From Patescibacteria group bacterium (GTDB lineage Bacteria; Patescibacteriota; Minisyncoccia; Phycocordibacterales; JBBUBG01): a stretch of 64,000 nt of DNA. Shown here in pieces: positions 16,443 through 59,487 of this stretch. How positions within the stretch are numbered: position 1 is the first letter of the stretch; every line of letters starts with the position of its first letter. Where the stretch lies: positions 358-64,357 of the forward strand of contig JAZKIQ010000005.1 of assembly GCA_040384765.1 (NCBI GenBank). The letters are read 5' to 3'. Position numbers and translations under genes: made by a program. The notes under the pieces were generated by a model. The model was given only the letters and a program-made list of their open reading frames with translations, had not been told where the DNA came from and ran no database searches.

Positions 16443-16449
16443 GTACTTG

Positions 16450-19561: not shown

Positions 19562-19615
19562 GTGTGGGGTTAGTATGCGTTGGCAAGGTTCGTTTTGCAA
19601 ACTGGCCAAAAAAGC

Positions 19616-19722: not shown

Positions 19723-19770
19723 GAAGAAGGAAGCGCTTCTAGATGCGCCACGTCTATGCCATTATAGCCC

Positions 19771-25376: not shown

Positions 25377-25388
25377 GAGATAAGAGGC

Positions 25389-42804: not shown

Positions 42805-43279
42805 GGGTCATGCTCCCCTCATGCGGAAGCGAATTCCATTCACCCAAGAGCTCACGCATTCGGTTTTGCACTTTTTCAATAAGCTGCTCGGTGCACCATG
42901 CAGGAACTACCTCACCTTTTGCACTGGCAATATTAGAGAGGACAGCAATCGCATCCTTGGCAGAGGCTCCACCGCGCACAACACCAGTCAGTACTCCTAC
43001 CACCATTTCAGTAGTGCCTGCTTCGGTACTGGAAGCCAGGAATATCTTTTCGGGAGAAGGATCTTCCATCCTCATTGAAAGTTCTTTAAGGGCTTTTCCT
43101 GCTGCAAGAGAGCCCCAAAATGAGTTTCTTAGATCGGCGAGAGTTTCTACGCAATAGTGGAGGAAGTCGTGAAAAAGAAACGTTTTTGTATTGAGGACAG
43201 CTTGTTCTCTCGTACCATTTTCCCGAACGAGCTCCAGCGTATGTTCCTCATACCGAAGCTTTGTAAGCTTGATCTTCAT
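42788..43279 (-). CDS. hypothetical protein; start ATG directly abuts family-A repeat arm
   Basis: ~163 aa from MKIKLTKL; ORF-track start 43303 reads through the repeat arm. Confidence 0.45.
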   Translation of the reverse strand: MKIKLTKLRYEEHTLELVRENGTREQAVLNTKTFLFHDFLHYCVETLADLRNSFWGSLAAGKALKELSMRMEDPSPEKIFLASSTEAGTTEMVVGVLTGVVRGGASAKDAIAVLSNIASAKGEVVPAWCTEQLIEKVQNRMRELLGEWNSLPHEGSMTLEFPL

Positions 43280-43384
43280 CCCGTTAGAAATTTTAGTTAG
43301 CAAAGATCACTCTATCCACAAAACAGTGATAATGGAATAAATGGTTAAACAATGAAGTACTCTTTCTATTTCTAACGGGACTCA
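43277..43384. repeat. family-A inverted-repeat element copy 1
   Basis: catcccgttagaaat ... atttctaacgggactcat; left arm supplies/abuts ATG of gene 42788-43279. Confidence 0.6.
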
Positions 43385-43468
43385 TCCCGAGAGAATAGCA
43401 CAGCACATTAGACAAAAGAAAAACCGCGAGCACTAGTGCTCGCGGCCAACCAAAAAACTAACTATGAA

Positions 43469-44413
43469 TTACGCTTCACGCACCTTGGGAACTACGACGA
43501 GCCGGCCGAGGGGCATTTCACCTCGATGGTATGCATGGAGTGCGTTCCACTCCTTGCAGCGCTCGTTGAGCCACCCGTGCACTTCATCCGGGCCCGGCAT
43601 CTCGGCGAACGGAATCTCCTTCATGTGAAGAAAGATCGACGCTCCGATCAGGTTAGGGGCCTGTTTGTAGGAGTGGAGGTCGACATTCGGGATGAAAGCC
43701 GACATCACCACCCGCACGTTAAGGCCTGCCTCCTTGGCCTTCCTGAGCTCCTCGAGCACTCCTATGAGCGCGCCTGCCCTGGGTACGCTCGTATAGCGCA
43801 TCCAGTCAGAGATCCCCGGGATCTTCTTCGCGTACTCCACCAGATCCCTTTTGTGGCGACCTGGCTTCCACCGCTGATCTGGGAACAACACAATTCCAGA
43901 GCCGGGCCGGATCTTTCCCTTGATCCACCGCTCGATCCAGCTGCGGGTTTTTTCAGTGCTTGCGCGACTCACGGGTACCGCGGCACCAAGTGCGAGCAGT
44001 GTCCATGAGAGGAATGGATTGAGCACGAGGAGCGCGCTCTTAATCACTACGACCATGTCTCGGGTGAGATAGGTCGTCATGAAATATCCGTACGTCGGGA
44101 TGAGCATCTCCGGCGGATGCGGACCCAGGAGAAGCAGCACATCGCGCTCCCCTGCTGGCGCCACCACATCACCACACAGGTACAGCTTGGCCCCACATAT
44201 CCCCTCGACTGAGGTTTTATGTGAAAGGCGGCAGAATGAGCTGATCACCGACCGAAGCGGACTCGACCCACTGCCAGCGTTCCCGGTAACCGGCGAACGG
44301 AACAAGCACCACGCGATGAACAGAGCTCCTCCAAGAGTGCCGTAGAGACCGTGCACCGCAAGAAGGAAGAAAACCACTCCGAGCGCGAAGTATCCTCGGA
44401 CGTACCGAAGCAT
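43469..44413 (-). CDS. membrane acyltransferase (LPLAT/PlsC-like)
   Basis: N-terminal TM; IVLFPDQRWKPG resembles the acyltransferase FPEGTR motif; GC-rich, strong SD ggaggtg. Confidence 0.4.
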   Translation of the reverse strand: MLRYVRGYFALGVVFFLLAVHGLYGTLGGALFIAWCLFRSPVTGNAGSGSSPLRSVISSFCRLSHKTSVEGICGAKLYLCGDVVAPAGERDVLLLLGPHPPEMLIPTYGYFMTTYLTRDMVVVIKSALLVLNPFLSWTLLALGAAVPVSRASTEKTRSWIERWIKGKIRPGSGIVLFPDQRWKPGRHKRDLVEYAKKIPGISDWMRYTSVPRAGALIGVLEELRKAKEAGLNVRVVMSAFIPNVDLHSYKQAPNLIGASIFLHMKEIPFAEMPGPDEVHGWLNERCKEWNALHAYHRGEMPLGRLVVVPKVREA

Positions 44414-44478
44414 GCGACCACCTCCAAAAACATTAGAACATACTTTTCATAAAGTATCAAGCGGCTCGCAATATCTTC

Positions 44479-44901
44479 CTACCGCTTTTTGACCTCAAAC
44501 ATAAACCGATACTGCACCATTGGCACCTCGACTCCGGCACGTTTCTCGCCGGGCTCCACGCGAAGAAATGTAATCGTCTCAGCTTCTGTCGTGATACTTT
44601 CGCCGAGCTTAAACACCACGACACTCTTGCCTAGTCCGCTTTCAAGATCTGCCTCCACGCGCACCGTGCCAGCCTGAATGCACTGTACATCCATTGGGCA
44701 GCGGCTATCTTCGAGCAGCTTACGCGGCACGATACGCACGCCGAGCGCGCGTGCCTCCTCATCGATCGAAGCAGAAAACTCAACCTTCTTTTCGCACGAT
44801 GAGTCCTTGCAAGCGTCACCCTGCATACCCACCCATGTCGCTCCTCCAAGGATAATGAGCAGGGCCGCCGCTCCTGCTACAAGCGATGTTTTATTGTTCA
44901 T
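44479..44901 (-). CDS. secreted hypothetical protein (signal peptide, paired Cys)
   Basis: MNNKTSLVAGAAALLIILGG signal peptide. Confidence 0.45.
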   Translation of the reverse strand: MNNKTSLVAGAAALLIILGGATWVGMQGDACKDSSCEKKVEFSASIDEEARALGVRIVPRKLLEDSRCPMDVQCIQAGTVRVEADLESGLGKSVVVFKLGESITTEAETITFLRVEPGEKRAGVEVPMVQYRFMFEVKKR

Positions 44902-45007
44902 AGAGATGACTCTACCACACGAACTGGCCCGATCGCGCAAAAGAAAAACCGTCTAAACGCGTCACACAACATAGGTCGGGATACACAACCAATGCACTTA
45001 ATCTTAT

Positions 45008-45214
45008 ATGCAAAGCGAAACAAACCAACAGTACGTAGAAAAATATATTTCAGGGGTCGGCTTTCCAGCAACAAAGGAGCGAATTGTATCGCATGCCAAA
45101 AGCCAGGATGCTCCACAAAACGTGGTCGATGCACTTGAAAAAATAGACAACCGAGAGTACGGAGGTCCGGTAGACCTCGCAGGAGAGATCAGCAGCAAGA
45201 CGGACGTACAGTAG
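45008..45214 (+). CDS. DUF2795 small protein
   Basis: YISGVGFPATKERIVSHAKSQDAPQNVVDALEKIDNREYGGPVDL matches DUF2795 pattern. Confidence 0.55.
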   Translation: MQSETNQQYVEKYISGVGFPATKERIVSHAKSQDAPQNVVDALEKIDNREYGGPVDLAGEISSKTDVQ

Positions 45215-45217
45215 TTG

Positions 45218-46288
45218 CTAGAGGCGCTCTTCAACAAGGGGCGCCGGAGCGTCAACTCGCTCAATTACAAACTTCACCCTACCCAAGCGCTGGCCGCGAA
45301 GGGTCTCGATATTCACCCGCCATTCTCCAGAGCTCGCGTTTGATTTCCACGAATACCCTCGATATCCATAGTCCTGACCTCCGATAATCGGAAACTGAAC
45401 ACGGCTCTCGAGAACCCAACTGCGAGTGGTCTCGTCGTATCGCTCCCAGCGATGCACGATAGAGGTACCGAAATGTGTGGGGGCAAAAACTGCCGAGAAT
45501 ATATAGGGCGATTCTATCGCAGTGAGATGCAGGACTGGCCTTCGCCATGCGAGAAACCATGGATACTCTTCACGCTCCACACGATATCCGCCCTGCACAC
45601 GTGCAACCGAGTGGTATGCGCCAACATCGTGAAGTGCGAGCGGCAAGGGTGGAATAAGGTTGGCAAAGTAAAGAACGTTGAGCAGAACAAAGAGAGAAAC
45701 AAGCGTAATGCCAAGGCGTGTCTTTCGTGTCCTCACTCGCTCGGGAACAAACGAATCGAGGAACCTAACAAATAGATACGTGACCACAAGCGCGAGCATT
45801 CCAGAGAGTACGAATATCTGATCGCTCATCTTTCCCACAAGAATCGGTATGTAGAAAATGAGGAAAAGAAAAAGAGCGAGGAAGAAGAAATTTATCTGAA
45901 GAAGAAGACGCGTGTAATGTTTTTTTGCAAACTCATTTGAAATAAGGAGTGCGAGCAGCGCCAAAAGAAACGGCCAGCTTTGGGCTATCGAGCCGCTATG
46001 GAAGTAGTAAAGAAAAAAGCGCCCAAACAGACCTCCAAAGGAAAACTGCATGGCAATGAAGAGCCACGCGTATGTCTCGCGCCCAAAAAACTTGACCCGC
46101 CCCTCTTCATAGAGATTGATAATAAAAATCCCAAAGGCTACGATCGCCAGATACGTAAAGAGGAGGACGTGATTTATGAAGAGGTCGATTCGAACAAGCG
46201 TAATCGAATCGAAAAGGAAACCAAGCAGTATCGAGCCGGCAGAGATTCGACGCTCGTACTGTTCATAGAACTCACGGACGCGACGCAT
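45218..46288 (-). CDS. polytopic membrane protein, unknown function
   Basis: 356 aa, ~8 TM. Confidence 0.5.
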   Translation of the reverse strand: MRRVREFYEQYERRISAGSILLGFLFDSITLVRIDLFINHVLLFTYLAIVAFGIFIINLYEEGRVKFFGRETYAWLFIAMQFSFGGLFGRFFLYYFHSGSIAQSWPFLLALLALLISNEFAKKHYTRLLLQINFFFLALFLFLIFYIPILVGKMSDQIFVLSGMLALVVTYLFVRFLDSFVPERVRTRKTRLGITLVSLFVLLNVLYFANLIPPLPLALHDVGAYHSVARVQGGYRVEREEYPWFLAWRRPVLHLTAIESPYIFSAVFAPTHFGTSIVHRWERYDETTRSWVLESRVQFPIIGGQDYGYRGYSWKSNASSGEWRVNIETLRGQRLGRVKFVIERVDAPAPLVEERL

Positions 46289-46307
46289 GTACCTAGCATA
46301 TCACGAG

Positions 46308-46410
46308 CAAGAGCTCAGTTGTCAGAGTTCAGAGTTCAGCCAAACAAAAGAGCGACGCCCTACGGGCGTCGCTCTTTTACTAAACTCTGAACTCTAATCT
46401 CTGAGCTCTG
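46308..46410. repeat. family-B cluster copy 4 with embedded terminator-like hairpin agagcgacgccc-tac-gggcgtcgctct-tttt
   Basis: caagagctcagttgtcagagttcagagttcagcc...ttttactaaactctgaactctaatctctgagctctg. Confidence 0.6.
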
Positions 46411-46413
46411 GCA

Positions 46414-47757
46414 CTAAAACACCGTGACCGTGGAGTTTACGCTACCGTTGGTAAAGCCAAAGGGGGCTGTGGCATTGAACAGTATTGGGAACGTCCCACG
46501 CTGGTTGTACGTGTGGGTAAACGTAAGAGTCTGTACCCCTGGGTTTGATACTGTTTGCACCGAAGAAAAAGTCGAAGAGAAGCCACTCTGCAGCTCATCA
46601 CCCCAGCGCGCCAAAAGAGTGATCTGTCCTCCTGTCGTGTTGTTTACCGTAACGGTCCAGGTGCCCGTAGAGCCAAGGGCGAGCGAGCTTGGGCCGTTTA
46701 CGCTTGTGATAAGGCCGCCAAAGGTCTGGTTGAACTGCTGGTTAGACTGACCACCAAAAAACGGACTGTTTGTCGTGAGGACAAATGGGAGTGAGTTGCT
46801 CCGCACGCCGCTGGTGCCACTTGAAACTGAAATGTCGTACGAACCGGGAGCAATAAGCTGAGAGCTACAGTTGAATGAGCAGTTGCTTGGGAAGAAGGTT
46901 GCGGGTACACGAAACGAGAGCGTTGTACCGTTCGAAGAGCTGAGCTGCTGATCCGTGATCGAGATCCCCCCAAACTGCACGATGTTTCCTGAAGGCGCAA
47001 ACCCCGAGCCCACAATCGTGACGATCTGCCCTGCTGTTCCCGAACTGTTCGAAAGCGAGGTGATCGTAGGAGTGCTGTTATATCCGTAGTACGGATAGTT
47101 CTGGCTATACTGATTTTGACCAGAGTACTGGTATGCGCTGTTGTAGCTATTGGTGTAGGTGTATGGATACGTGTACTGAGAGCCATACTGGTTGTATCCG
47201 TACAGGTTGTTTGGGTACTGACCAGTGTACTGATACGCACCGCTCGAGTACGGATTGTTTCCGTACGGCTGGTACATCCAGTTCTGATAGTCATTCTGAT
47301 ACGAGTTGTATGCACCGTATGTCGAACATGCTGCAGCTATCGCAGAGCGTGTCTGTGGGCCCACGGTGCCTGTTGGCGTAATGCCATTGCGAGACTGATA
47401 GATTGCTACCGCCGACTGTGTGTTCACATCGTAATATCCACTTACCACAAGATTTCCTACACCAAGGTTCTGAGCGAGGAGAAATGACTGGAGGCTTGTT
47501 ACGCTCGAGTCGCCAAAAGCAGAATCGGTTGAACCAAGCGAGAGATCACGCGAGACGGTAGGACACGAAGAACCATAAGGGCCGTTATTGTACGGGGAGT
47601 ACCCAGAGTACTGAGTACCGTACCCATACTGCGGATAGTAGCCATAAAACTGAGCAAGCACAGCACTACTTCCCAAGATCACAGCTCCAAGGGCCAAAAA
47701 CAGCTGAAATACAGGGTTTTTAAGGACATTTTTAGTCATTATAGTTAGTTTGGTCAA
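46414..47757 (-). CDS. secreted peptidoglycan-binding-domain protein with long Y/N/Q/S/G-rich low-complexity region
   Basis: signal peptide; PG_binding_1-like LQSFLLAQNLGVGNLVVSGYYDVNTQSAVAIYQSRNGITPTGTVGPQTRSAI; prion-like Y/N/Q repeats. Confidence 0.55.
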   Translation of the reverse strand: MTKLTIMTKNVLKNPVFQLFLALGAVILGSSAVLAQFYGYYPQYGYGTQYSGYSPYNNGPYGSSCPTVSRDLSLGSTDSAFGDSSVTSLQSFLLAQNLGVGNLVVSGYYDVNTQSAVAIYQSRNGITPTGTVGPQTRSAIAAACSTYGAYNSYQNDYQNWMYQPYGNNPYSSGAYQYTGQYPNNLYGYNQYGSQYTYPYTYTNSYNSAYQYSGQNQYSQNYPYYGYNSTPTITSLSNSSGTAGQIVTIVGSGFAPSGNIVQFGGISITDQQLSSSNGTTLSFRVPATFFPSNCSFNCSSQLIAPGSYDISVSSGTSGVRSNSLPFVLTTNSPFFGGQSNQQFNQTFGGLITSVNGPSSLALGSTGTWTVTVNNTTGGQITLLARWGDELQSGFSSTFSSVQTVSNPGVQTLTFTHTYNQRGTFPILFNATAPFGFTNGSVNSTVTVF

Positions 47758-47822
47758 AATGGCTTATTTTGCAAGGAGGTAAAAAATAAGATAACAGAGG
47801 TACGAAATGTCAATATTCTTCC

Positions 47823-48092
47823 TCAGAGAAGAACAGCCTCATCGACAAGCACCGTGAGGACGTTTGCGGTATCCATATGAAGAAAACCGCCCGCAATACT
47901 GAAGGTTTTTGGTTCTCCACTTTGGGTCTCGAGCTCAGCTGTTCCAGCTACAAGCACGGTCGCAAAAGGACGGTGGTGGTTGAGCACCGTCACCTCTCCT
48001 AGCTCGGTTTTTACCGTAAAGCGCTTTGCTTCACCTTCGTATTCAACGCCTTTTAAAGAGATAACTTTCGTGTGCATAGAGGCTTTTAGCAT
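47823..48092 (-). CDS. atpC: ATP synthase F1 epsilon subunit (short)
   Basis: beta-sandwich epsilon N-domain; last gene of atp operon. Confidence 0.7.
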   Translation of the reverse strand: MLKASMHTKVISLKGVEYEGEAKRFTVKTELGEVTVLNHHRPFATVLVAGTAELETQSGEPKTFSIAGGFLHMDTANVLTVLVDEAVLL

Positions 48093-48107
48093 TCGACTTT
48101 TACCTTT

Positions 48108-49612
<1,505 letters not shown>

Positions 49613-49613
<1 letters not shown>

Positions 49614-50560
49614 TACTGGTTTACGATCGCTGATGATATCTCGGTCATCTCCTTAGTAATTCCTGCCTGTCTCGCTTTGTTAAAAAGAAGGAGAAGTCCC
49701 TCGCCAAGCTCGCTTGCATTGTCCGAGGCGCTTTTCATGGCAACTCGTCTGGCAGAATGCTCACTTGCGTTTGCCTCAAGCAAGAGCTGGTAGAGCTGCA
49801 TGGAGACCAGATGCGGCATGAGCACAGCAATGAGTCGCTCAGGGCTTGGTTCAAAAATATACTCTTCCTGCGAAAGCGGGGGCTCTTCTTCTACTTTTGC
49901 ACGCAACTCTGCAAAACGGCCGTGCTCGGGTACGAGCTCGGCAATCGTATCGTGGATAGTATCGATATGGAGCGGAAGGAGCTCACGGACAAGAGGCTCT
50001 TGCCTAAGAGTGGTCCGAAAATGAGTGGAGACAACCACCACGCGATCCCATCGACCATCTGTATACCCCTCGCTTATGAGGTCCGCAATCGGCTTTGATT
50101 CAAGCGGGGTCACATAGTCGCCAAACCCTTCGAAAGAGCCGACGATCTCGAGACCCTTTTTTGCACCATACGAAAACGCCTTCTTTCCCACCAGAGCAAG
50201 CTTGTAGGTGTGCCCCGCCGTCTGCGCATGAATATCCTTTGCAAGAAACGCATCGGCGGCCCTCATGAGCTGCGAATTGAATGCTCCCGCAAGCCCGCGA
50301 TCTGACACCATCACCACCAGAAGAGTTGTTCGAACAGCCCTTCCAGCAACAAAAGGCGCACTCGCCAAAATATTACCGGGAGTGTGCAGAAGAAGCTCTC
50401 TCAAAATAGAAAGCGCAGCAAATCCGTAGACGCGAGAGCGCAACGCCACCTCTTGGCTCTTGCGCATCTTCGTCGCCGAGACCACCTCCATTGCCTTGGT
50501 GATCTGACCGATATTTTTTACGGCGTTTCGCCGCGCTTTTATATTCTGGAGGGATTCCAT
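49613..50560 (-). CDS. atpG: ATP synthase F1 gamma subunit
   Basis: 315 aa, conserved N- and C-terminal coiled-coil helices. Confidence 0.85.
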
Positions 50561-50562
50561 AG

Positions 50563-52092
50563 CTACTTGCGGATCGAACGATACGAGTCGATTGCTTTTT
50601 TCAGCGCACCCTCAGTTGTCTCATCAAGTGCCCCAGACGACCGGAGAGGCTCCACAACATCACTATCATGGCGCGCGCCAACATATTCAATGAGACCCTT
50701 CTGAAACGCACGCACCTCTTCCTTCGGGATATCGTCGAGATATCCATTGAGCGCGGCGTACAGCTCGACCACTTCGAAGTAAAACGGAAGCGGGTCGCCA
50801 TCCACCTGCTTCAACACCTCGGTCAAAAGCTCACCGCGCGAGATGCGCTTGCGGGTGTGTTCATCGAGGTCAGAGGCAAACTGCACAAACGCGGCAAGCT
50901 CTCGAAACTGTGCGAGCTCAAGGCGCAGCCGACCAGCCACCTTTTTCATCGCCTTGGTTTGGGCCGCCGAACCTACGCGCGAGACCGAAAGTCCTACGTT
51001 GATAGCTGGACGAATACCCTGATGGAAAAGGGCATCCTCAAGATAGATCTGACCGTCAGTGATCGAGATAACGTTGGTCGGAATATATGCGGACACATCT
51101 CCAAGCTTCGTTTCGATGATAGGCAAGGCGGTGAGTGATCCTCCTCCACGCTCACGGTCGAGCTTTGCCGCACGCTCGAGCAACCGAGAGTGAAGATAGA
51201 AAATATCTCCCGGATACGCCTCGCGGCCCGGACTTCTTCGAAGAAGGAGCGAGAGTTCGCGATAGCTGTCGGCATGCTTTGAAAGGTCGTCGTACACAAT
51301 GAGCGCATCCTTTCCGTTGTACATAAAATACTCTCCGATTGCTGCCCCAGCGAAAGGTGCAAGGTACTGGAGCGACGCACTTGCAGAGGCTGGCGCGGAT
51401 ACAACTACGGTGTATTCAAGCGCGCCCGCGCGCTCAAGATCACTCACAATCTTTGCGATTTTTGAGTTCTTCTGCCCCACCGCAACATATACGCAATACA
51501 CCTGGGGTCGGCCGGGGTCAGCCTTCTGGTTCAAAATAAAATCAAGCGCTACGGCAGTTTTTCCGGTCTGTCGGTCGCCGATGATGAGCTCACGTTGTCC
51601 GCGACCCACAGGGATCATGGCGTCGATCGCCTTTACTCCTGAATGAAGCGGCACTTTTACACTCTCGCGAGATACTACGTTTGGCGCAGCTCGCTCAAGC
51701 GGATAGCGCTCTCCTTTACCCTCTGCAAAAAGGACACCTTTGCCATCAAGCGGAAGGCCAAGCGGCGACACCACGCGCCCAAGAAGCTCCATGCCCACAG
51801 GAACCGAAAGGACCTCCTTTGTACCGCTCACCCGGTCCCCGACCGAGACGCCGCTCGCATCGCCAAGGATAATGGAACCGATGAACTGTTCTTCGAGGGA
51901 AAAGGCGATTGCAGGTACCGCACCTGAAGCGGTTTCAATAGAGAGAAGCTCTTGCGAAAGTGCTTCGGAAAGGCCCGAGATTTTCGCAATTCCATCGCCC
52001 ACCTCTACCACCGTACCCACCGAGCGAAGCGCCGGGTCATCTTTAAACTCAGCTATCTCGCGCTTAATTTTCTGGATAATTTCGTATGACAT
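50563..52092 (-). CDS. atpA: ATP synthase F1 alpha subunit
   Basis: GDRQTGKT Walker A. Confidence 0.9.
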   Translation of the reverse strand: MSYEIIQKIKREIAEFKDDPALRSVGTVVEVGDGIAKISGLSEALSQELLSIETASGAVPAIAFSLEEQFIGSIILGDASGVSVGDRVSGTKEVLSVPVGMELLGRVVSPLGLPLDGKGVLFAEGKGERYPLERAAPNVVSRESVKVPLHSGVKAIDAMIPVGRGQRELIIGDRQTGKTAVALDFILNQKADPGRPQVYCVYVAVGQKNSKIAKIVSDLERAGALEYTVVVSAPASASASLQYLAPFAGAAIGEYFMYNGKDALIVYDDLSKHADSYRELSLLLRRSPGREAYPGDIFYLHSRLLERAAKLDRERGGGSLTALPIIETKLGDVSAYIPTNVISITDGQIYLEDALFHQGIRPAINVGLSVSRVGSAAQTKAMKKVAGRLRLELAQFRELAAFVQFASDLDEHTRKRISRGELLTEVLKQVDGDPLPFYFEVVELYAALNGYLDDIPKEEVRAFQKGLIEYVGARHDSDVVEPLRSSGALDETTEGALKKAIDSYRSIRK

Positions 52093-52104
52093 CCGGTACT
52101 GTTT

Positions 52105-52488
52105 CTAATTTCTAGAACTAAACAACCGCTTGAGCTTTCCTCGAAGAGAAAGGTCGAGTTCACTGCCCCCGTCAATCGTGATACGAACTCCTGCAATCAA
52201 CTCTGGCGCAACTCGTGTCTCGATGACATCTTTTTCGTTGAGACGTTTTGCAAGTTCGCTGATCGTTTCTGCACGCGGTGCCCGTGCAAACTCCAGGAGG
52301 ACAACACGACCCCCTTCACGGCGAGCCAGAGTCCGCTCTGCAAGAGAAAGAATGCTGTCTGATCTCTCGGTATCGCCATTGCGGCGAACAAGCTCGGCAA
52401 ATCGCCTCGCAATCGCTTCAGTGTCACCCTTTGTCTCTGACAGAACCTCGACAAGCGCATCGGCGTAAGCTTGGGCAGAATATTTCAT
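52105..52488 (-). CDS. atpH: ATP synthase delta (OSCP) subunit, truncated form (127 aa)
   Basis: YAQAYADALVEV N-terminus; position between atpF and atpA. Confidence 0.7.
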   Translation of the reverse strand: MKYSAQAYADALVEVLSETKGDTEAIARRFAELVRRNGDTERSDSILSLAERTLARREGGRVVLLEFARAPRAETISELAKRLNEKDVIETRVAPELIAGVRITIDGGSELDLSLRGKLKRLFSSRN

Positions 52489-52573
52489 CCCGTTAGAAAT
52501 TTAAGCTCTTAAACAACCATCGACATTCGATGTTTAGCGCTTTATGTAGCTGTGTATTTCTAACGGGATTCAT
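52486..52573. repeat. family-A inverted-repeat element copy 2 (atttctaacggga arms) spanning atpF stop to atpH ATG
   Basis: catcccgttagaaat ... atttctaacgggattcat; left arm contains atpH start codon. Confidence 0.6.
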
Positions 52574-52576
52574 ATA

Positions 52577-53077
52577 TTATTTCTTCCCAAGCTCTCGCAT
52601 TGCTTCCGCAATCAAAGCCTCATCAACCAACGACGGGCTAAGCGAAACTGTCTTTTCAAAGAGCGCTCGAACGAAGGTTGCTGCCTCTTCCTCAACATCG
52701 TCCATCACCTCTTTGCGCTCACGCAGCGCAATCAGTTTTGCCTCCTCTACGATACCGTCGGCCTTCGCCTGCATAAGTGTACGTACTTTCTCGCCCTCTG
52801 TGCGAGCCTCTTCCTCAGCTTTCTGGATCATTCGCAAAGCCTCTCCTTCTGCTTCCGCAATTTTGAGAGCTTTTTGCTTTTCCGAATCCGACAGATTACG
52901 CTCTGCGTGCTTTGCATCGAGTAATCCCTTTGAAATCGTCTGCTCACGCTCTGCTACCAAAGCAAGGAGAGGCTTGTAGAGAGCAAAGTAGAGCACCACG
53001 AGCACCACCAAAAAGTTCACCCCATGAGCAAGGAGAGCGGGTCCGTTGATACCTAAGTTGGTGAAGAGTTCTGACAT
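52577..53077 (-). CDS. atpF: ATP synthase Fo b subunit
   Basis: N-terminal TM plus long charged helix. Confidence 0.8.
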   Translation of the reverse strand: MSELFTNLGINGPALLAHGVNFLVVLVVLYFALYKPLLALVAEREQTISKGLLDAKHAERNLSDSEKQKALKIAEAEGEALRMIQKAEEEARTEGEKVRTLMQAKADGIVEEAKLIALRERKEVMDDVEEEAATFVRALFEKTVSLSPSLVDEALIAEAMRELGKK

Positions 53078-53080
53078 GAG

Positions 53081-53163
53081 CAGAGAACAGAGTTCAGTTA
53101 TCAGAGTTCAGAGTTCAGTCAAACTGAGCTCTTGCCTCTAAACTCAAAACTCTGAGTGAACTC
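53081..53163. repeat. family-B palindromic 9-mer cluster (agagttcag/ctgaactct units) filling atpE-atpF gap
   Basis: cagagaacagagttcagttatcagagttcagagttcagtcaaactgagctcttgcctctaaactcaaaactctgagtgaactcc. Confidence 0.6.
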
Positions 53164-53164
53164 C

Positions 53165-53392
53165 TTAGACGAACTTCAATATAAGTGCAACCACCAAAGA
53201 GTAGATAGCAATCGCTTCCGCAAACGCAAGCGAGAGCACCATTGCTGTCTGGATCTTAGAAGCTGCTTCCGGGTTTCGGCCAATAGCCTCTGCGGCTGTT
53301 GTACCAATACGCCCAATCATAAGCGCAGGAGTGATAGTACCTGCTACGATAACCGAACCGATTACAACCATCTTTGCCATTTCTGAATCCAT
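53165..53392 (-). CDS. atpE: ATP synthase Fo c subunit
   Basis: two TM hairpin with conserved carboxylate ([10 protein letters not shown]). Confidence 0.85.
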
Positions 53393-53429
53393 AGCGTTTT
53401 CTCAAAACTATCTATTAAATAACTCACAC

Positions 53430-54254
53430 CTAATGTGCATGCTCCTCGCCCCCGTGCTCCTCTGAGTTCATCGCAAGGAACACCGTAGTGAGCATCGCAA
53501 ATATGAACGCCTGGATAAACCCAACAAACACCTCGAGGAGCATGAAGGGCAATGGCACGAAATACGGTGCCAAGAACGACACAATGATAAGCAGCACCTC
53601 TCCGGCAAACACGTTGCCAAAGAGGCGGAACGAAAACGACACTATCTTAACAAACTCTGACACAACTTCAAGGAGGCCCACAAAAAAGTGAATGGGATCG
53701 CTAAAGTTGAAAAACTTACCCGCATGCTTTTTAAAACCGAGAGCAACAGCTGAAAAGAGATGGATCAGGAATACAGCGATGACGGCAAGAGCGATTGTGA
53801 AGTTAAGATCGGAGGTCGGCGCTCGAAAAAGTGGATGATGTCCAAACTTAAGCGGCCCCGTGATCGGAAACAGCCCGAGCCAGTTTGAAAAAAGGACAAA
53901 GAGAAAGATCGTTGCAACAAGCGGGAGATAGCGCTCGGACCTCTTGCGATCGCCAAGCACCGGGTCCATTGTTGAAAGGATCCCCTCAAAAACGATCTCT
54001 GCGACACCCTGCAGCTTTCCAGGAATAGTCCGGAGATGTACCTGTACAAGCCTACCAAGCGTAATAAGAAGGATCGACGTCACGAGCCCGAGAGCCATCG
54101 AGTTGGTTACCGCAAAATCCCCGATATGAAAAAGCTCCTCGGCCTTGATCGAGATAGGCTCCATGCCGCCCTCTGCACTCTCATGAGCAGCTTCTTCTGT
54201 TCCAAGGATCTCATGCTCGGACGAGACGTTTTCAGTGTATTCGGAAGTGGCCAT
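53430..54254 (-). CDS. atpB: ATP synthase Fo a subunit
   Basis: 5 TM with conserved Arg helix (LSFSFRLFGNVFAGE). Confidence 0.85.
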   Translation of the reverse strand: MATSEYTENVSSEHEILGTEEAAHESAEGGMEPISIKAEELFHIGDFAVTNSMALGLVTSILLITLGRLVQVHLRTIPGKLQGVAEIVFEGILSTMDPVLGDRKRSERYLPLVATIFLFVLFSNWLGLFPITGPLKFGHHPLFRAPTSDLNFTIALAVIAVFLIHLFSAVALGFKKHAGKFFNFSDPIHFFVGLLEVVSEFVKIVSFSFRLFGNVFAGEVLLIIVSFLAPYFVPLPFMLLEVFVGFIQAFIFAMLTTVFLAMNSEEHGGEEHAH

Positions 54255-54352
54255 CAGTACTGTGACACTATCACGCGAGAGGAGGTAGGAGCAAATTGCA
54301 TGTTTTTCGCATCATGTGCTATTTTTTGAAATGTCAGTTAACTACAACAACC

Positions 54353-54853
54353 ATGAGCCAGGAACAATTTGAGAAAAACGAACAGTCAAAGTCTGAGTTA
54401 AAACTCCTAAAAAAGATCGAGGTATCGCAAGAGCACTATAAAGCCGACGCAGCAACTGTCACCTGTATTGACGACCGCTTTACGGACTCCGTTGAAGCCG
54501 TAAAAAAAGAGATGGGTTGGGACCGCGTCGATTCAGTAAAGTGGGCAGGTGGAGCTGCTGAAATCGCAAAAGGCTCGCTCGAAGGAAAGGCCGCTCTGGG
54601 CCAGATCGAAAAATCTATCAATCTCCACGACACGAAAGAGATTGTGCTTACCATGCACGAAGACTGTGGTGCATGCAAAGGTGTAATGCCCGAAGACCAC
54701 AAAGGCGCGCTCGGGTTCATGCAGGAAGAGCTTGAAAAAGCTGGCATGGTTGTACAGAAATTCTTGGCTGAAAAGGGAAAATCCCGCCCTATTCGACTTC
54801 TTGCATACGGTCTTGACGGGGTTTACGAGGTTGATCTCCCCCAGGTTCAATAA
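54353..54853 (+). CDS. hypothetical protein with CxDDR ... HEDCGAC motifs (possible minimal beta-carbonic-anhydrase-like metal site)
   Basis: 167 aa from MSQEQF; Cys-Asp-Arg and His-x-x-Cys spacing resembles beta-CA zinc ligands; weak. Confidence 0.35.
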   Translation: MSQEQFEKNEQSKSELKLLKKIEVSQEHYKADAATVTCIDDRFTDSVEAVKKEMGWDRVDSVKWAGGAAEIAKGSLEGKAALGQIEKSINLHDTKEIVLTMHEDCGACKGVMPEDHKGALGFMQEELEKAGMVVQKFLAEKGKSRPIRLLAYGLDGVYEVDLPQVQ

Positions 54854-54954
54854 CCCGAGGAACCAACTCCGCCGGATTTATCTGATATATAAAAGCCGGG
54901 GCGTTTCCACACTGGTTTGTGTGGTCGCTCCGGCTTTTGCGCGTAGTCCTTGGG

Positions 54955-55572
54955 CTACGTGTTGAGGCGGGACCTCTCGATCTCCCCGCTCTTGCTCTTG
55001 TTGTCAGAGTCGATGTAGTACGGCTTGATCTTCTTCTCCGCGCAGAACTGTTCCCAGTTCTTCTTGTTGAAGAAGTACGTCTTCATCTTGCCGCCACTGT
55101 AATCGATGTGCACGAACGGTCGCACTTCGACCTTGGGATGGTGCTCCTTGAGCCACATCTTGAGCCGCAGCTTCCCGGCGTAGCCGACCTGCACCATCTC
55201 GATAATCGAGAGGCCGGCTCTTCGCGCCATTCCGCACGGTCCGTGGAAGCCAACTGCGATGATCTCGAGCTCCTTGATGCTGATCCCCCCGCCGATCTCG
55301 GCGAGAGTTTCGCGCTGGGTCGCCTCAGTAAACGAAACGGGCGAACCATCCGCGAGGATCAGAGAACCGCCAAACCTAGAGAGGTCCTGGGTCGGTCCGA
55401 AGAACTTCTTGTGGTGTTCGCTGATGTCGGGCATGCGTTCCATGTCCCGGCAGTTAAACAAACCGCACTTCTTCTCCGACGGGATCCTGTGCCCGTCGAT
55501 CTTGTCGAACACCCGCCTTTCCTTCAGCTCTTCGATAACCTTCAACTCAGTTCGTGACAGATCTGTAGACAC
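54955..55572 (-). CDS. hypothetical protein (GC-rich cassette, GTG start, SD gaaggaggg)
   Basis: 205 aa; higher GC than neighbours. Confidence 0.5.
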   Translation of the reverse strand: MSTDLSRTELKVIEELKERRVFDKIDGHRIPSEKKCGLFNCRDMERMPDISEHHKKFFGPTQDLSRFGGSLILADGSPVSFTEATQRETLAEIGGGISIKELEIIAVGFHGPCGMARRAGLSIIEMVQVGYAGKLRLKMWLKEHHPKVEVRPFVHIDYSGGKMKTYFFNKKNWEQFCAEKKIKPYYIDSDNKSKSGEIERSRLNT

Positions 55573-55732
55573 CTGGAAAACCCTCCTTCACCGCTTTAAA
55601 GGCGATAAAGTCTGGCTCTCCCCCCTAAAGAGCACATTTGGAACCGTACTCTCTCCATGGTATTCCGCAATAAAATCCCGTCAAGCGCGAGCTTTGCATA
55701 AGCCATTTTTAGGTACATAAGGAGAGGCAGCC

Positions 55733-56773
55733 CTACGGCAACTTCTGCTCTTTCCGTATCGCAAAATAGACGTCAACGAGTGCAAAGAGGAGCACGAGAA
55801 CGAGCGGACCAAACAAAAATCCAATCGGGCCAAAATAGCTCAAGCCGCCGAAGGCCGAAAGAAGGAGCAGGAACGGATGCAGCTCGACATCCTTTTCGAG
55901 CAGTTTCGGCCCAAGCAAGTTGTCAGCAAGCCCGACCCCAACAACTCCCCACACAGCGAGCGCCACCGCAGGTGCAGTTTCACCAAATGCAAACAAAGCG
56001 ACGACCGCAGGCGCTATCACGAGGCCTGCACCCACCGCAGGAATGAGCGCAGCGATCGCAGCAACAGTTCCCCACAAGACGGGGCTCGAAACACCAAAAA
56101 GAGCAAAGCCTACGCCCGTGAGAACTCCTTGGAGGAGGGCGATGATCAGCTTCCCCTTCACCACAGCGTTGATAGCCGAAGTGAGCTTGGCGCCTATAGC
56201 ATAGTCATGGACATTTTGAAGGGGGCTCGCATCGGCAACTCTCCGTCGAAGCGCATCTCCATCCTTAAAGAGATAGTAGAGCGCTACGAGAAAGATAAAG
56301 ATACCAATGAATACACGCGCAGCTCCAGAAACGAAGCTTCCGAAATGGAGCACTACCCAGCTTGCACCCGCTTTTGCATATTGCCCCAGATCCAAAGTGG
56401 TATCTGCGGGCAGTGAAATGTACTGAGAGAGCCACCCGCGCACGGTATCAACGAGTGACGCAAGCGTTTGCGCTCCGCCCCCAGACTCAAGCGATGAGGA
56501 GAGATCGCTCGCCTCTTTGAAAATCTGTACTCCAATAGCAATGAGCGGAAGCACCACGATAACAAGCACGCATAGCGTTGAGAGGAATGCGGCAACGCCT
56601 TTTTTACCCGGAGCATACGAAACGATCTTCTTATGCAAAGGTTCAAATACCACCGCAAAAATAATCGCGAGAATCAGTGCGTATAAAAACGGCCTGAGCA
56701 TCGAGAGGAATAGCAAGAGCACGCCAACGAGAAGCGCGAGGAGAAAATACTGCTCAGATTTTTGGTGATGCAT
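55733..56773 (-). CDS. AI-2E family transporter (PerM/YdiK/TqsA, UPF0118)
   Basis: 8 TM; C-terminal SAFGGLSYFGPIGFLFGPLVLVLL signature. Confidence 0.75.
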   Translation of the reverse strand: MHHQKSEQYFLLALLVGVLLLFLSMLRPFLYALILAIIFAVVFEPLHKKIVSYAPGKKGVAAFLSTLCVLVIVVLPLIAIGVQIFKEASDLSSSLESGGGAQTLASLVDTVRGWLSQYISLPADTTLDLGQYAKAGASWVVLHFGSFVSGAARVFIGIFIFLVALYYLFKDGDALRRRVADASPLQNVHDYAIGAKLTSAINAVVKGKLIIALLQGVLTGVGFALFGVSSPVLWGTVAAIAALIPAVGAGLVIAPAVVALFAFGETAPAVALAVWGVVGVGLADNLLGPKLLEKDVELHPFLLLLSAFGGLSYFGPIGFLFGPLVLVLLFALVDVYFAIRKEQKLP

Positions 56774-56810
56774 TGGGAGAGAAAAAAATTACGCCTGCTT
56801 TTACCTCATA

Positions 56811-57980
56811 CTACTCTCTCGCAAACCGATACACTACCCCCGTGCGATCATCCGTAACATAAAGCGTGCCTCCGGGCTCAATAAGGAGATCTACCGGACG
56901 GCCACGGACAACCCCATCTGCCATAAAGCCGCTTATGAAATCCGTCGGGCCACCGAGAAGCTTCCCCTTGGGATCAAGGTCGAAGCGAACAACCTTGTAT
57001 CCTGTTGGTACAGATCGGTTCCACGAACCGTGGTACGCAACGAGCAGGTCGTGCCAGTACTCCTCTGGCCACCCCTCTTCGGGAATAAACGCAAGCCCAA
57101 GCGGTGCAGAGTGAGCCTGGAGGTCGATCTGGCTTGGAATCGCCTCTTTGGCAAAACTCGGCATCACCCCAGACCGGAACTTTTCATCAAAAATATTGTT
57201 GCCATAAAACCAGGGCCACCCGTACCAGCCTCCCTCCTTCAAAATATTGACCTCGTCTGGTGGGATATCATCTCCGAGAAGATCCCGCCCCATCTCTGTC
57301 GCCCACAGATCACCTGTCACTGGATGCAAGGCCATAAATACGCTGTTGCGCAAGCCGGTAGCATAAAGGTCGAGCTTCTTCGTGGCAAGATCGAGAGAGT
57401 ACACAACAGCACGGTCAGTCTCCTCGCACACGTTGCACGATGAGCCCACAGAGATAAGCAGGGTTTTGTTGTCAGGTGAAAGGTGGAGCGACCGCGTCGA
57501 GTGGCCACCGCCCGACGGAAGCGTAGCAAGTTTCTCTGGTCGAGAAGCTACATGTTCTTGTGCGTCGTACTCATATCCGCGCACAGCGTCCTCTTCTGCC
57601 ACATACAAAGTGCAGTTTTCTTCTCCTTCACACACAAACACAATGCCGTGGGGCCCGTTTAGGTCCTCAAGCACCAAAAATGTTTTGTCCGCCTTTCCAT
57701 CAGCATCTGTATCGACGACGGTGACAATCTTGCCTTCGCCAGGCAGGCTCACGGCGAGCCCACCACCCGGATCATGCACAACATCTCGCGCTCCGGGAAG
57801 ATTTTCTGCATAGAGTGAGATCTTGAACCCTTCTGGTACTGTATAGGGCAACTCGCTTCCAGGCTCGAGCGGCGGCGTTGTTAGGAGGAGAGGGACCACG
57901 CCACTCAAAAACCCTCGGATGCTCCACAGAAGGACGAGCACGAGGAGAAGCAAGCCAAGTAAAAGGAATCTCTTTTTCAT
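56811..57980 (-). CDS. secreted PQQ-dependent sugar dehydrogenase-like beta-propeller (GSDH/YliI family)
   Basis: signal peptide; GWPWFYG, HGSWNRS motifs. Confidence 0.5.
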   Translation of the reverse strand: MKKRFLLLGLLLLVLVLLWSIRGFLSGVVPLLLTTPPLEPGSELPYTVPEGFKISLYAENLPGARDVVHDPGGGLAVSLPGEGKIVTVVDTDADGKADKTFLVLEDLNGPHGIVFVCEGEENCTLYVAEEDAVRGYEYDAQEHVASRPEKLATLPSGGGHSTRSLHLSPDNKTLLISVGSSCNVCEETDRAVVYSLDLATKKLDLYATGLRNSVFMALHPVTGDLWATEMGRDLLGDDIPPDEVNILKEGGWYGWPWFYGNNIFDEKFRSGVMPSFAKEAIPSQIDLQAHSAPLGLAFIPEEGWPEEYWHDLLVAYHGSWNRSVPTGYKVVRFDLDPKGKLLGGPTDFISGFMADGVVRGRPVDLLIEPGGTLYVTDDRTGVVYRFARE

Positions 57981-57992
57981 CTTCGTTTTATA

Positions 57993-58580
57993 TTAGAGCC
58001 CCGATAAAGCTGCCTGCCAAGCTTGGATTGCGGGAATAGGGTGTAGGAGCATTACCATATTCAGAATCAGATTGTCGCGAATAAAGTAGAGCAGGAGGAG
58101 CTCGAGCACAATGACCACTCCAAGTGACCATCTCCAGGACAGTTTTGAAACAATATAAAACCCGAGCATCATCGCAAAAATATCTCCTACCGTATTGAAT
58201 ACACTATCTCCGTAATAGTTGAGCGAAATGGTAGCAGCCCTGTACCGCTCAATTACAAACGCGCTATTTTCCAGAATCTCCCAAAGCGCCTCCAAAGCAA
58301 CGGCAACAACAAACCTTTTGCGAAGCGGGATCTTTCGAGCAAAAAGCCACAGAAGAAAAAAGAGTGCTACGCCATGCGTGATGTGCGTAAACGAATAGGG
58401 GTCAAAGAGCTGCTGAGAATTTTCGGCGCTCACTACCGCAGCTGTCCAGATCTTAATGCTGCCACATTCACAAAATGGCACTCTGCCCTGCCAGAGAAGC
58501 ATGCCGATGGTTATGAGGAAAAGAGCAGCTATCGCAAAAGCCATCTTTCTCTTTGAGAGCTCGTTTGAGAGGAGGTTCAT
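57993..58580 (-). CDS. DUF2585/UPF0314 membrane protein
   Basis: WTAAVVSAENSQQLFDPYSFTHITHG signature; ATG abuts family-A arm. Confidence 0.5.
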   Translation of the reverse strand: MNLLSNELSKRKMAFAIAALFLITIGMLLWQGRVPFCECGSIKIWTAAVVSAENSQQLFDPYSFTHITHGVALFFLLWLFARKIPLRKRFVVAVALEALWEILENSAFVIERYRAATISLNYYGDSVFNTVGDIFAMMLGFYIVSKLSWRWSLGVVIVLELLLLYFIRDNLILNMVMLLHPIPAIQAWQAALSGL

Positions 58581-58684
58581 CCCGTTAGAAATTCAAGTCC
58601 TTATAACTTTTTATAATCCAAAACAGCGACTATCTATATTGGATGATGTGCAGGTTATTCCACGCTATTTCTAACGGGACTTAT
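58578..58684. repeat. family-A inverted-repeat element copy 3, spanning stop of upstream gene to ATG of DUF2585 gene
   Basis: catcccgttagaaat ... atttctaacgggacttat; right arm overlaps stop codon 58681-58683. Confidence 0.6.
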
Positions 58685-59229: not shown

Positions 59230-59268
59230 AGTAGCAAAGATCACAGAGGAGCGTGGTACGATTTTTGT

Positions 59269-59487
59269 ATGTACATTAGGGTGAATGTGATAACGGGTGC
59301 CAAGAAGGAATCTTTCCAAGCGGCGGGAGAGAATCGTTTTGACGTAGCGGTAAAAGAAAAACCGGAGCGGAACTTGGCCAACAAACGCGTGCTCGAGCTC
59401 GTCGCCATACATTTTGACGTAAAGCCAAAAGAAGTCCGAATCATAAATGGCCATCACTCCCCTTCCAAAATGCTATCGGTGCGCTAG
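59269..59487 (+). CDS. DUF167 (YggU/UPF0235) small protein
   Basis: VAVKEKPERNLANKRVLELVAIHFDVKPKEVRIINGHHSPSKMLSV matches DUF167 signature. Confidence 0.55.
   Translation: MYIRVNVITGAKKESFQAAGENRFDVAVKEKPERNLANKRVLELVAIHFDVKPKEVRIINGHHSPSKMLSVR

Follow-up and report, generated by a model that had tools for sequence, protein, structure and literature searches.

What kind of sequence ends exactly on the first base of a start codon, and does so three times within one stretch of DNA? The question is raised by three minus-strand loci in a 64-kb piece of contig JAZKIQ010000005.1 of a Patescibacteria group bacterium (the whole stretch analyzed, referred to here as the window), one of them inside the atp operon, where an inverted repeat runs up to the ATG of the gene behind it. 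An earlier note on this DNA had favored a functional intercistronic hairpin of the host and had mentioned, as an alternative, an element that targets start-proximal sequence. The comparisons below, made with database relatives (labeled L for loci and P for proteins), indicate that the three loci are very probably nonautonomous copies, of the type known as MITEs (miniature transposable elements with inverted repeats), of a mobile family whose full-length form carries a GIY-YIG nuclease gene. The element is not specific to the window genome and is probably not primarily an RNA module of the host. At the level of sequence comparison, its insertion nature (target duplication and empty sites), the family relationship, the geometry of the open reading frames (ORFs), and the nuclease domain can be regarded as established.

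An exact search with the 13-mer ATTTCTAACGGGA gave exactly six matches in the window, which form three inverted pairs (43279-43291 with 43368-43380, 52488-52500 with 52556-52568, and 58580-58592 with 58667-58679), so that the minus strand reads TCCCGTTAGAAAT, an AT-rich interior, and ATTTCTAACGGGA at all three loci. Six or more arm matches were found in 0 of 100 dinucleotide shuffles, even when 2 mismatches were allowed, and no decayed arm rose above chance level in the window at 3 mismatches; the arms are either perfect or absent. The earlier description of perfect arms holds, with lengths of 13 bp in the copies at 43 kb and 58 kb and 14 bp in the atp copy, loops of 76, 55, and 74 nt (copies 1, 2, and 3, respectively), and total spans of 81 to 102 bp. 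The interiors have 30 to 38% GC compared to 51% for the genome, and the three loops show no significant similarity to one another. The copies and the genes next to them are as follows.

43279..43380, minus strand: element copy 1; 5' arm 43380-43368 (TCCCGTTAGAAAT), loop 43367-43292 (30% GC), 3' arm 43291-43279 (ATTTCTAACGGGA)
42788..43279, minus strand: host gene of copy 1, 163 amino acids (aa) (MKIKL...), no Pfam family
52488..52568, minus strand: element copy 2, in the atpF-atpH gap; 5' arm 52568-52556, loop 52555-52501, 3' arm 52500-52488; the stem reaches 14 bp
52105..52488, minus strand: atpH (ATP synthase delta/OSCP, 127 aa), host gene of copy 2
52577..53077, minus strand: atpF (ATP synthase B, 166 aa), upstream of copy 2; stop codon 52579-52577
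58580..58679, minus strand: element copy 3; 5' arm 58679-58667, loop 58666-58593, 3' arm 58592-58580
57993..58580, minus strand: DUF2585 gene (195 aa), host gene of copy 3
58681..59454, minus strand: gene upstream of copy 3, 257 aa, no Pfam match; its L230 ortholog, at 74% identity, runs into the DUF2585 start with an ATGA overlap

In all three copies the gene-proximal arm supplies, as its final base, the A of the host ATG (43279-43277, 52488-52486, and 58580-58578), as had been described, and no Shine-Dalgarno (SD) sequence was found between arm and ATG in any of them. For the atpH and DUF2585 queries there are database entries of equal length (127 and 195 aa) with 100% identity over 100% of the query, so these two starts have also been called by others. 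The other arm had been placed at the upstream stop codon in two copies; this stands for the copy at 58 kb, where the distance is 1 nt, and fails for the atp copy, where it is 8 nt. What the atpF stop does adjoin, at 3 nt, is an upstream ATG (52573-52571) that is itself part of the structure.

We surveyed one genome per species (596 Gb) with a 14-mer of the arm and retrieved at least 120 loci; all counts given here over 85, 86, 54, 58, 62, or 37 elements or arms come from the matches listed in this survey. About 75 of the loci, among the matches listed, belonged to many classes of Patescibacteria (Saccharibacteria, Nomura-, Kaiser-, Yanofsky-, Doudna-, Zambryski-, and Campbellbacteria, and Paceibacterota), and arms were also present in Planctomycetota (Sedimentisphaerales, Phycisphaerae, and Planctomycetaceae), Omnitrophota, and WOR-3, with an inverted partner arm 3 to 270 nt away in genomes of all four groups. 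The remaining matches were solo exact arms inside genes, almost all in unrelated phyla, which we read as chance because 14-mers are expected by chance in 596 Gb. Among the matches listed, a partner was present for 51 of the 54 arms adjoining the ATG of an ORF with at least 60 codons, and the unit is therefore the arm pair and not a solo leader motif. The terminal A and the flanking TG open an ORF of 60 to 750 codons in ca. 65 of 85 elements (again among the matches listed), and the genes behind them are varied, including galU-like, EF-P, SMC, AspRS, RecR, SecG, HisA, and others (names read by eye from ORF translations). Across 62 arm pairs of gene-oriented elements, 763 of 806 arm positions were Watson-Crick paired. 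The ATG is constant at the insertion sites in Patescibacteria, and the larger genomes of Planctomycetota have some copies elsewhere. The same arrangement recurs in dozens of unrelated genomes. The suspicion that three exact placements at start codons are not random was well founded.

Starts of the promoter-proximal (leaderless-type) kind also carry elements, as do Planctomycetota that use SD sequences. Apart from an A-rich junction, no fixed-position motif (5' leader or -10 box) was found upstream of the arm; a -10-like hexamer overlapping the start of the arm was weakly more frequent in proximal (30/58) than in distal (19/58) arms. No long copy with a classical transposase between distant arms was found among the listed loci. 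Two Saccharibacteria contigs have arms adjoining tRNA genes (L025 377-779 and L009 52-143; tRNA-Pro copies and tRNA-Ala), an arrangement that in L025, with its run of N and repeated tRNA fragments, may be an assembly artifact. At L055 (3880 region, Flavobacteria bacterium BAL38) the arm forms a perfect short palindrome between A and T runs, AAAAAAAATCCCGTTAGAATTTCTAACGGGATTTTTTA, which resembles a bidirectional terminator and probably has no relation to the family, or is a minimal relic of it.

As a rule, ATGAA, ATGGA, or ATGAG stands before the gene-distal arm, and the two bases after this ATG match those after the host ATG. When the nearest partner arm was taken without regard to flanks, the 4-nt flanks were identical in 47 of 85 elements among the matches listed, compared to 8.8 ± 2.6 (maximum, 19) in 2000 flank permutations. 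Excluding the common TGAA/TTCA class, the figure was 20 of 39 versus 1.6 in permutations. Rare flank variants also match on both sides (TGGA, TGAG, TATG, TGTA, and TGGG), and copies located off start codons have repeats of their own (CTAA, TTAG, TCAG, CAAG, and TTTA). In the window, the flanks are TGAG/TGAA in copy 1, the perfect direct repeat TGAA/TGAA in copy 2, and TAAG/TGAA in copy 3, within the following duplicates.

43381..43385, minus strand: left duplicate of the start site at copy 1, ATGAG; right duplicate ATGAA at 43279-43275, with 1/4 duplicated bases changed
52569..52573, minus strand: left duplicate at copy 2, ATGAA, 3 nt past the atpF stop; right duplicate ATGAA at 52488-52484
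58680..58684, minus strand: left duplicate at copy 3, ATAAG, decayed; right duplicate ATGAA at 58580-58576; the upstream gene stops at the TAA at 58683-58681

Judging from these flanks, the 4-nt repeat is a target-site duplication (TSD) and the left ATG the original start codon, with the host ATG rebuilt from the terminal A of the element and the duplicated TG. Tandem or nested copies that share one TGAA (arm-TGAA-arm) were found at L018 (7673-7896), at L065 (2174-2385 and 4139-4353), and at the C terminus of P0069; they are expected if the rebuilt start site stays a target.

Of the three window loci, two have clean empty sites in relatives: atpF/atpH and the gene pair upstream of DUF2585. In two relatives (L122 and L124), the homologous atp loci lack the element, and atpF and atpH lie 7 nt apart or overlap by ATGA. 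Their atpH begins ATGAAATATTC or ATGAAGTATTC, where the window has ATGAA, the element, and TGAAATATTC. A closer relative, L230, has a DUF2585 80% identical and an upstream gene 74% identical to those of the window, with gene order kept, and its empty site reads ...ggcatacgATGAtcag... (cgATGAtc, in which the TGA stop overlaps the ATG start), compared to cgATAAg, the element, and ATGAac in the window. From this overlap it follows that the G-to-A change at copy 3 cost the left ATG but not the upstream stop, which went from TGA to TAA. Empty sites, recurrence in dozens of genomes, and duplications in which the TG of the start codon is included together support the alternative that the element targets start-proximal sequence. 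A different inverted repeat, TTATCTGCC ... GGCAGATAA, occupies the atpH-atpA gap of L122 (1878-1970), and its right arm ends exactly at the atpA ATG; other arm families may use the same start-codon position.

Full-length cassettes of ca. 270 to 340 bp are bounded by the same inverted repeats (12 to 14 bp) and contain a single ORF of 85 to 97 aa with a GIY-YIG domain. Only 2 of 86 elements in the arm-selected sample were of this type, with interiors of 268 nt (L056) and 251 nt (L048), the rest being short. In L056 the duplication and the left arm provide the start of the ORF (ATG AAT CCG GTT AGA AAT, MNPVRN), which ends at the TAA in the right arm (AAT TTC TAA cggg ATG) and encodes 97 aa, MNPVRNSQWYTY...INKINF*. 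This protein matches Pfam GIY-YIG with an E value of 5.6e-17, the only domain above threshold. L048 is the same cassette, frameshifted. One metagenome-assembled genome (MAG) contains both the full-length L056 and several short copies (L115).

A word-indexed search placed the homologues of the nuclease in more than 2,600 clusters, and among 50%-identity representatives a profile search recovered 17,917 matches at an E value of ≤1e-3 and 3,594 at ≤1e-10. The tyrosines of the GIY and YIG motifs and an Arg, a His, a Glu, and an Asn are invariant. Among the 120 best homologues, 78 have the N terminus M-x-P-V-R, 75 end in ...TG (mostly ...LTG), and 15 end in ...NF. The LTG ending corresponds to the right arm read as CTA ACG GGA TGA, with the TGA overlapping the next ATG, and the NF ending to the TAA of the arm. 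Since the C terminus is read from the arm in different frames, the arms must be conserved as nucleic acid and not as codons. The ORF opens 2 nt ahead of the left arm; its stop lies within or at the right arm, 0 to 4 nt from the rebuilt ATG, a layout that would suit translational coupling. Before ychF, for example, the sequence reads TAAAAT-6 nt-ATGAG/TCCCGTTAGAAC...GTTCTAACGGGA/TGAG, and YchF starts MSLSIGIVGLPNVG, with TAAAAT as the -10 box and TGAG as the TSD; before nusA in a Planctomycete the TSD is TGAA and the SD sequence is retained 5' of the left ATG. Another full-length copy lies between two iPGM genes, and one located off a start codon uses its own ATG just past the arm.

An independent sample of 80 metagenome loci was picked by similarity of the nuclease protein and not by the arm. 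Both arm cores were present in 65 of them, with element lengths of 268 to 339 bp. Of 20 elements ending in T..A, 17 were located at the start codon of a long ORF, the left arm was preceded at 5 nt by a start codon in 16, and the 4-nt repeat was present in 13. Elements ending in C..G rebuild GTG; 11 of 45 were on a long ORF, and many have extended arms. As for possible carriers, IMG/VR contained only 9 weak relatives, one with arm-like ends, and plasmids only distant UPF0213-type matches. The cassettes that share arms, 4-nt repeat, and position with the short copies thus encode a candidate partner for them, by association. The window loci have terminal inverted repeats and a short flanking repeat, are small, have no enzyme of their own, and are present or absent at orthologous sites, as MITEs are; we call them nonautonomous because a family profile search found no GIY-YIG gene of this family in the 64-kb window.

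The short copies fall into size classes of ca. 66, 78, 102, and 120 bp, with AT-rich interiors and a CGGGAT box. In its longer form, (TA)GCGGGAT, the box is a partial direct copy of the right-arm end; it follows the distal arm in 25 of 58 copies, with the mirror arrangement in 1 of 58, and is missing from the window copies. These own types of interior, the small share of full-length copies, and the lack of coding remnants would suit a reading in which the hairpin element is independent, the short copies are the original form, and the GIY-YIG gene colonized some of them, as homing endonuclease genes do introns. We consider this improbable, given that the nuclease ORF is integrated with the arms at both ends, that the loop contains no second-level duplication or insertion scar, that arms accompany most of the nuclease genes sampled by protein similarity, and that no other candidate mobilizing protein was seen near the copies.

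Inverted repeats around an AT-rich segment directly 5' of genes could also be operators of a dimeric transcription factor or recombination sites of an inverton, and the loop of copy 1 does contain a promoter-like site. This we regard as very improbable indeed: a fixed zero distance to the ATG and a 4-nt duplication are unexpected for operators or invertons, loops vary from 3 to ca. 270 nt, the promoter scan found no such site in the loops of copies 2 and 3, the 25-to-1 polarity of the box gives no sign of flipping, and no recombinase was seen nearby. Integron attC sites were discarded as well, since the order GTTAGAA ... TTCTAAC, found on both strands, is the reverse of RYYYAAC ... GTTRRRY and no integrase was seen. 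The same applies to REP/REPIN-RAYT or IS200/IS605 palindromes, which go with an HUH tyrosine transposase and subterminal hairpins and make no duplication, while here the partner is a GIY-YIG protein and 4-nt duplications are present.

If the MITE-like reading is correct, insertion would take place with a 4-bp duplication into the start codon of the host gene (target A/TGNN), and the upstream copy of the start codon would keep the promoter or ribosome-binding context of the host. In the full-length form, the duplicated start is that of the nuclease ORF (ATG-AAT-CCC-GTT-AGA, MNPVR), and the terminal A of the right arm with the duplicated TG rebuilds the host ATG, or GTG in G-ended variants. The nuclease ORF, which stops at a TAA within the right arm (TAA-cggg-ATG) or at a TGA sharing bases with the rebuilt ATG, would be translated from the host start, and the ribosome would terminate 0 to 4 nt from the host ATG and then reinitiate. 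Termination-reinitiation at stop/start overlaps is established in bacteria (PMC6728339), and an insertion before an essential gene would be tolerated because the host gene is translated in this way. The GIY-YIG protein would be what mobilizes the element, as their association suggests, and single-stranded DNA (ssDNA) cuts 4 nt outside the stem on each strand, in the manner of the Ssn nucleases discussed below, are predicted to give the 4-bp duplication. Expression of the host gene would be maintained by translational coupling or by the RNA stem. The precision at start codons fits a mixture of target preference and strong purifying selection in gene-dense genomes; by a rough estimate, selection alone would not give about 90% of insertions at starts.

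As the geometry shows, insertion leaves the upstream signals of the host with the left ATG, and the rebuilt ATG directly follows the right arm. The window copies keep different parts of this arrangement, and the features concerned are listed here, including upstream ORFs (uORFs) that open at the left ATG.

43385-43293, minus strand: uORF of copy 1, 30 codons, opening at the left ATG and ending 16 nt before the host ATG
43392..43397, minus strand: -10-like box TATTCT, 6 nt 5' of the left ATG of copy 1
43447-43422, minus strand: intrinsic terminator of the gene upstream of copy 1 (terminator scan)
43290..43318, minus strand: promoter-like site TGGATA-17-TAAAAT in the loop of copy 1, a consensus match only; its -10 overlaps the first two bases of the 3' arm
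52573-52493, minus strand: uORF of copy 2, 26 codons (MNPVRNTQ...SLNF), from the left ATG to a TAA in the 3' arm, 4 nt before the atpH ATG

In copy 2 the open 26-codon frame could plausibly keep atpF, the uORF, and atpH linked in a coupling chain. The neighboring gene upstream of copy 1 ends 88 nt off, with the terminator and the -10-like box in between, and we infer that this TATTCT box was the original leaderless-type promoter of the host gene; here the uORF ends 16 nt before the ATG, and the loop contains the promoter-like site. In copy 3, which has lost its left ATG, the upstream stop lies 1 nt from the base of the stem, and the ancestral state was the ATGA overlap. Among short copies in general, a uORF ends within 20 nt of the host ATG in 12 of 37, compared to 6.2 ± 2.0 in loop shuffles, and the frame that uses the TAA of the arm is overrepresented (20/37).

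Stable stems are predicted for all three window copies, as the earlier note had expected, with folding energies of -29.5, -32.4, and -33.6 kcal/mol and z-scores of -2.0, -6.5, and -3.3 for copies 1, 2, and 3, and the arms form the closing stem of the minimum-energy fold in each. This puts both copies of the start site at the stem base and agrees with a reading close to the one preferred in that note, an RNA module selected by the host that joins the upstream stop, start, or 5' end to the AUG by ribosome shunting or transfer, or acts in processing or stability to give AUG-proximal 5' ends, its spread being secondary. The arms are perfect in the six window instances while the interiors are unrelated and left duplicates have decayed, the short copies have a polarity relative to the gene in the 25-to-1 placement of the box, and arms differ by paired, compensatory-looking variants. 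As the primary nature of the element, however, such a module is unlikely. The element is an insertion, as target duplication and empty sites demonstrate, at full length it is a nuclease gene read through both arms, with three different C-terminal frames, and hosts include leaderless-type starts as well as SD users. Paired variants would arise equally if one protein binds both ends, and no RNA-specific pairing signature was seen (sense-strand G.U mismatches, 18, versus A.C, 13). Nor is the premise of an organism without SD sequences correct, for the window genome has GGAGG-type sites before the genes at 6749, 43469-44413, and 30419-31012, a minority of its genes. No known RNA family applies, with no Rfam 15 match at the gathering score over the whole window and only chance-level matches in a permissive scan of copy 2. 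Intrinsic terminators, which have a GC-rich stem, a short loop, and a T run, were rejected too, as scans of the three loci found none formed by the arms, the sole terminator being the separate one upstream of copy 1. The RNA stem may still have a secondary role in keeping the downstream gene translated, which would explain perfect arms alongside a decayed left duplicate.

Several observations weigh against the MITE-like interpretation or parts of it. The relatives with empty atp sites are distant, with 40 to 42% AtpH identity. All six window arms are perfect, yet 3 of 15 positions of the left duplicates have changed, which suggests continuing selection or homogenization of the arms, and selection in place points to a function at the level of host or element beyond that of a dead MITE. 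The short copies share only their termini with full-length copies: neither the family hidden Markov model (HMM) nor DNA alignment detected a coding remnant of the GIY-YIG gene in the window or in short copies. Simple deletion derivatives were therefore rejected as their origin; with no remnant and with mutually dissimilar window loops, descent by internal deletion is unsupported. Translational coupling through a uORF is not general for short copies, in which the enrichment is only modest. There is also a subclass with ACTTG, ACCTG, or GCTTG as the distal flank in place of ATGNN and no 4-nt repeat (short copies L011, L022, L026, L040, L049, L061, L074, L096, L100, and L101; full-length copies L163, L167, L154, and L212). 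Many of its short copies, the only ones checked for this, have a -10-like box 5 to 9 nt 5' of the pentamer, and an outer arm with a duplication was found at one locus only, L101. Many full-length copies ending in CCCCG..CGGGG likewise lack a 4-nt direct repeat at the assumed boundaries, and in some C..G-ended ones (L214, L226, and L218) the palindrome extends by CTTG..CAAG or CTCG..CGAG. Finally, we know of no transposition activity in GIY-YIG proteins, nor, to our knowledge, has a mechanism been demonstrated that would give a 4-bp duplication with nucleotide-precise targeting of start codons.

Bacterial MITEs such as the Correia elements of Neisseria, ERIC, and RUP are short, noncoding, and multicopy, with terminal inverted repeats and a short target duplication; they reside in transcribed intergenic DNA, form long hairpins in mRNA, and can affect the expression of neighboring genes. 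They are tied to insertion sequences of the DDE type and are species or genus specific, whereas here identical arms recur from phylum to phylum, with a GIY-YIG nuclease as the partner gene, and we know of no MITE that inserts into and rebuilds a start codon. Mycobacterial MIRUs are intercistronic tandem direct repeats whose small ORFs abut the flanking stop and start codons; they resemble the present elements in that translational coupling is kept across an inserted sequence but have no inverted arms, nuclease partner, or target duplication.

The nearest system is Ssn. SsnA of Neisseria meningitidis is a 94-aa single-domain GIY-YIG protein, and its gene is flanked by hairpin repeats (NTS/SRM) of which hundreds also exist without the gene, close to genes and seldom within them (Chenal et al., Nat Commun 2025, PMC11893778). 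SsnA binds this repeat in its folded form, in ssDNA only, and makes its cut a few nucleotides outside, in the variable flank; the authors remark on the insertion-sequence-like layout and raise the hypothesis of a mobile element, present or past (PMC11893778). Compared with SsnA as published, the proteins found here have a similar size (85 to 97 aa), are likewise single-domain, and show nearly the same catalytic spacing (Y6/Y17/E64 in SsnA versus Y5/Y16/E62 in P0062). Both systems have inverted-repeat motifs on both flanks of the gene and gene-less copies, both repeats contain a TCCCG...CGGGA core, and the published cut outside the repeat would fit a cut 4 nt outside each arm. However, each Ssn flank has its own local hairpin (20 to 50 nt), while here the arms pair across the whole element, 55 to 270 nt apart; by inspection, the published SRM layout (one local hairpin HGTCWY...RNCYNB per flank) was not found at the window copies, L126, or L144, with only the TCCCG/CGGGA core in common. 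Target duplications, start codons, ATG regeneration, translational coupling, Patescibacteria, and Planctomycetota are not mentioned in that study (PMC11893778).

Free-standing GIY-YIG homing endonuclease genes, such as seg and mob of T4-like phages (reviewed in PMC2988022), are also small selfish nuclease genes between host genes that rely on host expression signals, and weak PHROG and NCBIfam homing-endonuclease matches were found for the family. They differ in having an added DNA-binding domain, in moving by cutting the empty allele at the same locus, and in having neither terminal inverted repeats nor target duplication; we rejected this assignment for a single-domain protein with copies before many unrelated genes and with target duplications. 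The closest solved structures by sequence are the UPF0213 (YhbQ) proteins BH0048 (PDB 1ZG2, E value of 4e-8) and EF2693 (PDB 1YWL, E value of 0.015), of low identity. They are of similar size and single-domain and differ as structural-genomics entries with no attached mobility, repeats, or function. On the sequences at hand, the window features are best classed as MITE-like members of a family of inverted-repeat elements associated with a nuclease and akin to Ssn/SRM. Neither insertion at a start codon with ATG regeneration, nor the 4-bp duplication, nor these arms were found described in the full-text literature searched (subscription-only literature lay outside reach). Relative to that literature, start-codon targeting, target duplication, and ATG regeneration appear to be new, and the Ssn nuclease and its hairpin repeats are already published.

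The window contains other repeats of its own. A second inverted-repeat family, with arms CAAGCACCAAATTCCAGA, occurs at 2525-2618 (loop, 58 nt), ending 12 nt before an ATG, and at 19615-19723 (loop, 23 nt), where the arms are ca. 25 to 43 nt long and the end is ca. 19 nt before an ATG at 19743 that is not a gene start of the ORF caller. A single-copy inverted repeat at 4383-4476, close to where the gene at 2631-4352 starts, consists of perfect 20-bp arms around a loop of 54 nt. In another, at 49492-49613, the 25-nt arms are 88% complementary and enclose a loop of 72 nt; this repeat takes up the space between the genes at 49613-50560 and 48108-49475, downstream of atpA, which from gene order alone we take to be atpG and atpD, and its left arm begins at the stop codon of the first. 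Repeats of the CTGAACTCTGA(A/T)CTCT type, tandem and inverted, lie directly 5' of many minus-strand genes, including atpF:

53078-53125, 16443-16510, 17078-17152, 25374-25465, and 46289-46412: CTGAACTCTGA(A/T)CTCT-type repeats

GTCCCT or GTCCTTCT-type repeats are found 5' of the genes at 7256-8728 and 12739-13797. The CTGAACTCTGA- and GTCCTTCT-type repeats could be shared regulatory or promoter-proximal repeats. Many window genes (42765, 44901, 46288, 29878, 27076, and others) also have a -10-like hexamer (TATACT, TAGAGT, TATGCT, or GATACT) 6 to 7 nt 5' of the ATG, a pattern that suggests widespread leaderless transcription in this genome.

Beyond the placement of the window loci in a mobile family, a bolder proposal may be considered, which is quite possible although we lean slightly against it: that the family is an undescribed class of selfish element, a minimal Ssn-like GIY-YIG transposon that inserts with start-codon precision, is made harmless by translational hand-over, has miniatures that persist because the RNA stem keeps the former and the rebuilt start site side by side, which would account for the perfect arms, and owes its duplication to ssDNA cuts 4 nt outside the arms. 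Under this proposal neither RNA splicing, as in introns, nor protein splicing, as in inteins, would be needed, since the host start would be taken over and the ribosome passed on. If the main reading is correct, it would show a mobile element living before essential genes (ATP synthase, nusA, ychF, aminoacyl-tRNA synthetases, and secG) without splicing, tolerated in some of the smallest and most gene-dense bacterial genomes by way of start-codon duplication and rebuilding and chained translation. Target duplications and empty sites would make a genome-level case for the mobility hypothesis of Ssn-type systems, with a predicted cleavage geometry that can be tested on oligonucleotides. For annotation, hundreds of calls of ca. 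90 aa, now "hypothetical" or "excinuclease ABC subunit C," and many short uORF-like MNPVR calls would be element encoded, and start codons beside arms could be assigned with confidence. The many insertions at leaderless-type starts would then be natural experiments on how far leaderless and coupled translation tolerate a hairpin.

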